Source: Escherichia coli (GTDB lineage Bacteria; Pseudomonadota; Gammaproteobacteria; Enterobacterales; Enterobacteriaceae). From it: a stretch of 64,000 nucleotides of DNA. The notes below the pieces were generated by a model that saw nothing but the letters and a program-made list of their open reading frames with translations, did no database searches and was not told where the DNA came from. The stretch lies in the NCBI RefSeq assembly GCF_003334405.1, contig NZ_QOWM01000002.1. One strand, 5' to 3'. Shown piece after piece: positions 56,226 through 57,490 of this stretch (position 1 is its first letter; each line of letters starts with the position of its first letter). Position numbers and translations under genes: made by a program.

Positions 56226-56942
56226 TCACAAGTAGACTACGCTTATCACAGCTTTCCCATCAAGTTCGATTTTTTCTGAACCGCCTAAATCATTCGCGAT
56301 AGATGCGCTCACCTGAAGCGGTATAATGGCGTTCGTTACAGGAGTTGGGGTTGTTTCACCTGGTTTTACAAAGGTGTAATAATAGCTTTGATCGACTGCA
56401 AGCGGATAAGCGGTGAGCGTTTGCCATGCTCTTTTTTGCCCTGTTATGACGGCATCTGCACCTGCTATTGATACAGCTAACGTCTGGCTACCATTGCTGG
56501 CACTAATGTTGTTGCTATCAATTAACACGGCATAACTACCGATATTTTTATTATCTTTTGTTTTCCCTAAGCCGAATAAGCGCGTTGTCTGGCTAATATA
56601 ACCTCCGCCATTTAAGGTATATTTTACACCACTCTGACCCCCACTATCTTTTCCGGTGGTCATACTATCCATTCGTGTATCACGAGCGGTAATCGCAATG
56701 CCGGTAGCGGATTCGCAAGTTATAGTCATATTAATATTACGTGTTCCAATCTGTGTGTAGTGCTGCGTTGAAAGTCTATTGACTGAATGACTACCGAAGT
56801 TAACAACTCCGCCGTTGCTTAGTATTGGAGTACAAGCTGCAGCTTCCAGAGTCACCTTAACGTCAATTGATACTCTATCAGCGGCTTGCGCTGACATGGC
56901 AAAAAAGGCACTTCCGGCAATCAGTAATTTTACATTGTTCAT
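56226..56942 (-). CDS. yhcF: Fimbrial-like subunit/adhesin candidate (GltF/YhcE/YhcF family)
   Basis: 238-aa ORF with signal peptide MNNVKLLIAGSAFFAMSAQA; C-terminus ELDGKAVISVVYL parallels GltF KLDGNVTISVQYL. Confidence 0.8.
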   Translation of the reverse strand: MNNVKLLIAGSAFFAMSAQAADRVSIDVKVTLEAAACTPILSNGGVVNFGSHSVNRLSTQHYTQIGTRNINMTITCESATGIAITARDTRMDSMTTGKDSGGQSGVKYTLNGGGYISQTTRLFGLGKTKDNKNIGSYAVLIDSNNISASNGSQTLAVSIAGADAVITGQKRAWQTLTAYPLAVDQSYYYTFVKPGETTPTPVTNAIIPLQVSASIANDLGGSEKIELDGKAVISVVYL

Positions 56943-57490
56943 TTTGCCTCCACCAGGACCGTCAGATTGCCTGTAATATCTGTCATGTCGGTTAGTTCCC
57001 CTTCATCCTTAAAAGCTGGAGCCATTGTCAGTGTGAGGCTAACGCTTTTACCGCTATCAATTACCACTTCTTGACCATTTTGCATAAACACCAGCCAATT
57101 ATTGGGGGAAGTACTAATTGATGCTGTTCCTGTGCTGCCCGGATTGTCATTTTTGCCACTGGCTAACGCCAGGTCGAGATTGTTACTACCTGAAAATGCA
57201 TCGCTGGCGATCAGATTTAATGAACCATTCGGGCCAAATCCAAATCCGTTGTTGGAAATATTAGCGGTATTCAACTGAACACGAATATGAGCGTCCTGAT
57301 CGCATTGCATTACCAGCGTGATTGTTCTGTCTGCTAATTGTGTTGTTTTACCCCGGTCAACTTGGCGCATGGCAGCACTTCGTTTGCCATAGTCGATATT
57401 TTGTATGCTACTGGAGATATTACACTCTGCCTGAGCGGCCATGGCGAAGTTCAGCAGCAGGCATCCTGTTATTATCCGTTTCATTGGCAC
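56939..57490 (-). CDS. yhcE: Fimbrial-like subunit (GltF/YhcE/YhcF family), uninterrupted here
   Basis: 183-aa ORF with signal peptide MKRIITGCLLLNFAMAAQA; overlaps usher stop and yhcF start. Confidence 0.75.
   Translation of the reverse strand: MPMKRIITGCLLLNFAMAAQAECNISSSIQNIDYGKRSAAMRQVDRGKTTQLADRTITLVMQCDQDAHIRVQLNTANISNNGFGFGPNGSLNLIASDAFSGSNNLDLALASGKNDNPGSTGTASISTSPNNWLVFMQNGQEVVIDSGKSVSLTLTMAPAFKDEGELTDMTDITGNLTVLVEAK

Follow-up and report, generated by a model that had tools for sequence, protein, structure and literature searches.

An Uninterrupted yhcE in the Fimbrial Locus of a Close Relative of Escherichia coli K-12, with a Tentative Role for Its Product

The DNA considered here is a stretch of 64,000 nucleotides from an Escherichia coli genome (RefSeq assembly GCF_003334405.1, contig NZ_QOWM01000002.1), hereafter the window, and it carries yhcE, a gene of the chaperone-usher fimbrial cluster gltF-yhcA-yhcD-yhcE-yhcF, as one intact reading frame (Table 1). 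This is very probably the native, never-interrupted form of the gene, in a source that is closely related to K-12 without being K-12, with the copy of the insertion sequence (IS) IS5 found in the K-12 gene being the derived state. The difference between the intact yhcE and the IS5::yhcE of K-12 is real, ordinary, and already published. The "gltF-yhcF" cluster is listed as beta-class, with "IS5::yhcE" in K-12, and as absent from strains W, B, and Crooks (Archer et al., PMC3032704); E. coli C has no IS5 in its yhcE (Krol et al., bioRxiv 10.1101/523134); yhcE is one of 11 IS5 sites in BW25113 (PMC11677980); and complete, IS-free yhc loci have been reported in 13 colonization factor-negative genomes of enterotoxigenic E. 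coli (ETEC) from phylogroup A, the phylogroup of K-12 (Del Canto et al., 2017, PMC5216030). The empty IS5 site and the background of single nucleotide polymorphisms (SNPs) indicate that the window does not come from a K-12 laboratory strain, which is of little importance beyond strain typing, and the only mildly new element is a functional hypothesis for the YhcE protein.

The Intact yhcE Frame and the Empty IS5 Site

In the MG1655 genome (NC_000913.3), yhcE (b4569) is a pseudogene in two fragments, 3365185-3365555 (371 nt) and 3366755-3366929 (175 nt), between which sits IS5R (3365556-3366750, 1195 bp), carrying insH10. Together these fragments make 546 nt, as long as the yhcE of the window, and they match it at every position. 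The preliminary description of this DNA had stated that an IS5 copy splits the MG1655 gene, and had suggested an alignment to MG1655 and a search for the target duplication as a check; the statement proves to be right, and the K-12 locus is not, as that description had allowed, uninterrupted as well. By blastn, the window matches MG1655 in two segments, 51868-57117 and 57114-64000, which overlap by exactly 4 bases, and the MG1655 flanks read ...CAATTAG, IS5, TTAGTAC..., i.e., a 4-bp TTAG target duplication. Thus, with yhcE at one chromosomal location in both, flanked by yhcD and yhcF, MG1655 has 1195 bp of IS5 and a second TTAG after gene nucleotide 371, whereas the window has a single, unoccupied copy of the target (CTAA on the strand given here) within a continuous frame, and does not carry the K-12 yhcE::IS5 allele. 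TTAG/CTAA is among the IS5 target sequences named in PMC11677980. When IS5R was searched against the whole window by blastn, the best match was 16 nt long (E = 0.064), so that no IS5-like DNA was detected, and IS5R is the only mobile element annotated in the MG1655 interval colinear with the window; both results agree with the earlier remark that no transposase-like frame or IS terminal repeat occurs in the window.

Table 1. Features of the yhc fimbrial locus in the window (positions count from the first nucleotide of the window).
Feature	Coordinates	Strand	Remarks
yhcE coding sequence, intact	56939..57484	(-)	181 aa from ATG; the mechanical open reading frame reaches GTG at 57490
Predicted YhcE signal peptide, MKRIITGCLLLNFAMAAQA	57428..57484	(-)	-3/-1 AxA rule; cleavage predicted before E20-C21
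Empty IS5 target site, CTAA	57114-57117	(.)	TTAG on the gene strand, gene nt 368-371; exact point of the K-12 IS5R
yhcF	56226..56942	(-)	DUF1120 fimbrial subunit with N-terminal donor-strand-like segment
yhcD	57481..59861	(-)	Usher gene, frameshifted near its start (A7, not A8, at 59850-59856)
yhcA	59882..60556	(-)	Periplasmic fimbrial chaperone; NCBIfam PRK09918
gltF	60728..61492	(-)	DUF1120 subunit, first gene of the cluster

In a six-frame listing of open reading frames, yhcE occupies 56939..57490 on the minus strand (183 aa from a GTG start), as the preliminary description had it. For identical DNA in two natural isolates that are nearly identical to the window, TB06053 and FORC_081, RefSeq begins the gene with the ATG at 57484, two codons further in, which gives 546 nt and 181 aa. 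The window has zero differences from either isolate inside yhcE, and the product annotated there, WP_000821351.1 ("YhcE family protein"), has the same sequence and is encoded in the same place between yhcD and yhcF; the representative of its cluster, which has 737 members, is 99% identical to YhcE. The earlier statement that the frame abuts the usher gene and yhcF is also accurate, as the yhcE ATG overlaps the yhcD stop as ATGA (57481-57484), and a second ATGA (56939-56942) holds both the stop of yhcE and the start of yhcF. Because of these overlaps at both ends of yhcE, the three genes look translationally coupled, to judge from the arrangement of their reading frames.

Distribution of the Insertion and the Relationship of the Window to K-12

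A collection of 5426 complete E. coli genomes was used for all counts. The 552-bp yhcE query has a match in 1142 of these, and in 783 the gene is uninterrupted, here defined as a single place that covers 80% or more of the query. A 100-bp query centered on the target site is present in 1141 genomes, with the site empty in 789 and split in 352. In all 352 split genomes the match is broken at query positions 49-52, the place of the K-12 junction, and those sampled that have informative names are all K-12 laboratory lineages (MG1655, W3110, C600, BW25113, RV308, DH1, J53, and others), while the empty-site genomes are diverse natural isolates. By parsimony, this distribution supports the empty site as the ancestral and natural state, and the IS5 in yhcE as a derived insertion specific to the K-12 lineage. 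Nothing of weight speaks against this history. An empty site alone does not separate a gene that was never interrupted from one restored by precise excision; the argument on the history of the locus therefore rests on the SNP background together with parsimony.

Read in reverse orientation, the window runs colinear with MG1655 positions 3358668-3423775, at an identity of ∼99.95% (∼0.05% of positions differ over 64 kb). Apart from IS5, the two differ by ∼29 substitutions, three 1-bp gaps, and a 91-bp repeat of which the window has one more copy. At positions 52101, 55734, and 60848 the window has the allele of wild isolates and not that of K-12, and at 40448, 42422, and 55215 it is unlike both MG1655 and the two closest isolates compared. 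The allele at 55215 (in yhcG), the sole private position that was searched, is shared over the full 67-bp query by no record among the 3494 with a match. The nearest complete genomes are those of isolates from chicken, fresh water, pig, and the NCTC collections, and even the best 25-kb matches among complete genomes differ from the window at 3-4 positions. Because of these SNPs, the indels, and the extra repeat, some of the alleles being common to wild isolates, the window is, by its sequence background, from a close K-12 relative and not from a K-12 derivative or an IS5-cured K-12. The preliminary description had supposed a K-12-like strain with the ancestral locus: the ancestral part holds, given the 789 empty sites among 1141, and "K-12-like" holds only in the sense of a close relative, ∼29 SNPs away, and not of a K-12 derivative.

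Two other explanations for the empty site were weighed. The window could derive from a K-12 strain from which IS5 had been precisely removed, whether in an engineered IS-free strain, a lambda-Red IS5 deletion mutant, or by spontaneous excision. Such constructs exist, as the yhcE copy of IS5 has been removed from BW25113 along with one copy of the target site (PMC11677980), and the K-12 fragments, once joined, match the gene in the window at 100%; however, ∼29 SNPs, three 1-bp indels, and an additional 91-bp repeat unit are far above the divergence among K-12 sublines, the alleles at 52101, 55734, and 60848 side with wild isolates against K-12, and the closest complete genomes are natural isolates, which together leave this origin highly improbable. 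It is just as hard to credit that an IS is present in the real genome and was lost in assembly, through the collapse of repeats or joining guided by a reference. Assemblies classically break at IS copies, and nearby yhcD has a homopolymer difference (A7 against A8) such as sequencing errors produce, but the junction in the window has a single CTAA and stays in frame, just as it does in 789 independent complete genomes, and no leftover IS5 end sequence occurs in the window, whereas a collapse would more likely have given a contig break or a duplicated target. An IS5-cured K-12 was therefore rejected on the SNP background, and an assembly collapse on the clean single-CTAA junction, in favor of a native yhcE that was never interrupted.

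The extra repeat copy belongs to a tandem array of 91-bp units at 31384-31798, in the intergenic region between tldD and yhdP, which is rich in palindromic REP-like sequence and comprises 4.5 copies that are 97% identical. With one copy less in MG1655, the window is 92 bp longer there, which is its largest extra segment.

The YhcE Protein and Its Possible Place in the Fiber

The closest relatives of YhcE are 48-84% identical, all exactly 181 aa long, and come from Escherichia, E. ruysiae and E. albertii among them, while farther homologs (∼175-195 aa, 22-34% identity) are found outside this genus. Across 26 sequences of the family, C21 and C61 are the sole invariant columns, and they align with the Cys pair of YhcF and GltF, the two DUF1120 subunits of the cluster. 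As expected of a pilin subunit, this is a disulfide-forming pair that brackets the first strands, and the AlphaFold model of YhcE (predicted local distance difference test score, pLDDT, of 87.4) has the immunoglobulin (Ig)-like pilin fold, with its first strand starting from C21 and low confidence for residues 1-20. Profile comparison (hhalign) of the YhcE family with YhcF/GltF gives a probability of 94.5% and E = 7.8e-8, only over the N-terminal 50 columns, which are the disulfide-bracketed segment; against the Pfam DUF1120 model, 9 of the 26 family members reach E ≤ 0.1 and none reaches E ≤ 0.001. On this alignment evidence, YhcE is a remote DUF1120 paralog of GltF and YhcF rather than a Pfam member. 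A PHROGs search gave no match for YhcE, YhcF, or GltF, a sequence search of the PDB with YhcE gave no hit even at E ≤ 10, and a literature search on DUF1120 returned nothing relevant. One further candidate homolog, a 2742-aa protein (P0047) with seven matching "stretches", was dropped, as it consists of Thr/Ser-rich repeats and a kinase-like tail, and the match was judged compositional.

Where YhcE departs from its paralogs is at the N-terminus. Members of the YhcE family have a median of 20 residues ahead of the invariant Cys, the last of which form a signal-peptidase motif of the AxA type, so that mature YhcE is predicted to start one residue before the Cys. YhcF and GltF have a median of 35, and what YhcF carries in addition, DRVSIDVKVTLEAAA, shows the alternating-hydrophobic pattern of a donor strand. 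YhcE thus lacks the N-terminal donor strand that a polymerizing pilin has between its signal peptide and first Cys. Taking the predicted structure and these features together, we infer that YhcE is a secreted protein with a predicted chaperone-usher pilin fold.

YhcE-like and YhcF-like sequences also occur joined in one protein. Five proteins of ∼375-394 aa from other bacteria (P0049, P0056, P0060, P0066, and P0070) consist of a full-length YhcE-like domain (domain E-values between 1e-28 and 1e-35) with a YhcF-like DUF1120 domain behind it, and the gene for one of them (L006 7001-8128) follows the usher gene immediately, within a chaperone-usher operon rich in DUF1120 genes. In a distant locus where the two are split, the order usher, yhcE-like gene, DUF1120 gene is kept, with overlapping stop and start codons.

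In donor-strand exchange, a subunit that has an acceptor body but no donor strand of its own is confined to the distal end of the fiber. Distal subunits of this sort are the pilin domains of FimH and PapG, and the single-domain tip subunits of the AfaD/AggB/SafD type. From sequence and the predicted fold, we tentatively propose that YhcE may be the tip or initiator subunit of beta-class fimbriae, with YhcF as its complementing subunit. YhcE would be an acceptor-type pilin body without an N-terminal donor strand, for which, by the logic of donor-strand exchange, only the distal end of the fiber is possible; it would be the first subunit assembled (a tip or initiator, possibly an adhesin), and its groove would be filled by the N-terminal donor strand of YhcF, the strand ADRVSIDVKVTLEAAA pairing with the last strand of YhcE. 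In K-12, IS5 destroys the YhcE subunit and should also be polar on the translationally coupled yhcF. YhcE differs from the FimH, PapG, and AfaD-type tips in that no similarity of its sequence to a solved structure could be detected, and in that it is single-domain in E. coli and two-domain where it is fused to a YhcF-like module.

Several observations weigh against this role. The cleavage site of the YhcE signal peptide is predicted by rule, and the fold rests on a predicted structure in which YhcE was modeled alone. The match of YhcE to Pfam DUF1120 (PF06551) reaches only E = 0.11, over residues 30-70. YhcE also lacks the penultimate Tyr of its paralogs, ending in ...GNLTVLVEAK where YhcF ends in ...VISVVYL and GltF in ...ISVQYL; the C-terminal consensus of the YhcE family is VEA and then a final position that varies and is mostly Q or K. 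In addition, deletion of yhc in one ETEC strain left adherence to Caco-2 cells unchanged (PMC5216030). YhcE could alternatively be no fiber subunit at all but a periplasmic or secreted accessory protein, such as an assembly regulator or a chaperone-bound cap, which merely shares the Ig-like fold; we regard this as the less likely reading.

Were YhcE indeed the tip or initiator subunit, it would be the tip subunit of a class that has never been characterized and had been considered to be without tip subunits, the K-12 insertion would have taken out exactly the subunit that starts assembly, and the YhcE-YhcF-like fusions in other proteobacteria would be two-domain tip proteins, in effect natural "donor-strand-linked" constructs. 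For a gene whose function the literature calls unpredictable, the predicted pilin fold, the lack of a donor strand, and the natural fusions with YhcF-like domains offer a concrete role that can be tested. We know of no fiber or adhesin activity demonstrated for beta-class fimbriae. Intact yhc loci, rather than that of K-12, which is unsuitable, would be the right starting material for work on this class. In the ETEC study, intact YhcE matched 353 database entries and its function was called "unclear," and the authors noted that no beta-class fiber had ever been demonstrated (PMC5216030).

The Fimbrial Cluster and the yhcD Frameshift

The genes around yhcE place it in a chaperone-usher fimbrial operon, as genes for an usher and a periplasmic chaperone adjoin the subunit genes. 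The usher YhcD matches NCBIfam model PRK15304 with 1200.9 bits (cutoff 723), and the chaperone YhcA matches PRK09918 with 319.7 bits (cutoff 183); the same gene order recurs in distant loci whose products have PapD_N and PapC_N/Usher/PapC_C domains. The assignment of the yhc cluster to the beta clade of the Nuccio and Baumler scheme is that of the literature (PMC3032704; PMC5216030). YhcE, YhcF, and YhcD each match the corresponding NCBIfam model of the set PRK15301-PRK15304, but YhcE scores only 54 bits (cutoff 226) and YhcF 107 (cutoff 337), so that these two are homologs and not equivalents of the proteins modeled. The four models (a hypothetical protein, two further hypothetical proteins, and an usher) presumably represent the Salmonella stj-type beta-fimbrial genes.

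The GC content of the gltF-yhcG segment (54400-62200) is 0.35-0.48, compared with 0.55-0.59 in the flanking gltD and nan genes, and the fimbrial genes occur in ∼1140 of the 5426 complete genomes (∼21%). Low GC and patchy occurrence form the pattern of an accessory island, which the gltF-yhcF cluster fits. As the neighboring yhcG is found in 3494 genomes, a boundary of the island appears to lie between yhcF and yhcG, judging from these gene counts.

The usher gene of the window has a defect of its own, which the preliminary description had noted separately. In codons 2-5 of yhcD, a run of seven A residues on the gene strand replaces the eight found in MG1655 and in 1106 of 1135 genomes; the fully intact relative FORC_081 also has eight. 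The A7 allele occurs in the other 29 genomes, scattered over isolates of different names and sources. Read from the normal ATG (59861), the frame ends after 23 codons, and the main frame offers no ATG, GTG, or TTG before 59697; the NCBI annotation pipeline (PGAP), given the same A7 allele, calls a 787-aa usher from a CTG at 59844. The A7 run may reflect homopolymer slippage or phase variation, or a sequencing error, and the operon in the window may still be off, despite the intact yhcE, through the loss of this one base where the usher gene begins. The ETEC and E. coli C loci (PMC5216030; bioRxiv 10.1101/523134) likewise have gltF-yhcA-yhcD-yhcE-yhcF without an IS, and the same 717-bp form of yhcF as K-12; the window differs from them by the deletion in yhcD.

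The island is often hit by IS elements in nature, and insertions other than IS5 are also found in this part of the cluster. The yhcF-yhcE-yhcD interval (56200-58200) has been struck independently in natural isolates by IS1, IS2/IS3-family elements, IS903B, and ISSen4, as judged from annotated transposases, and K-12 derivatives such as C600 and NEB10-beta have an extra IS2 there besides IS5.
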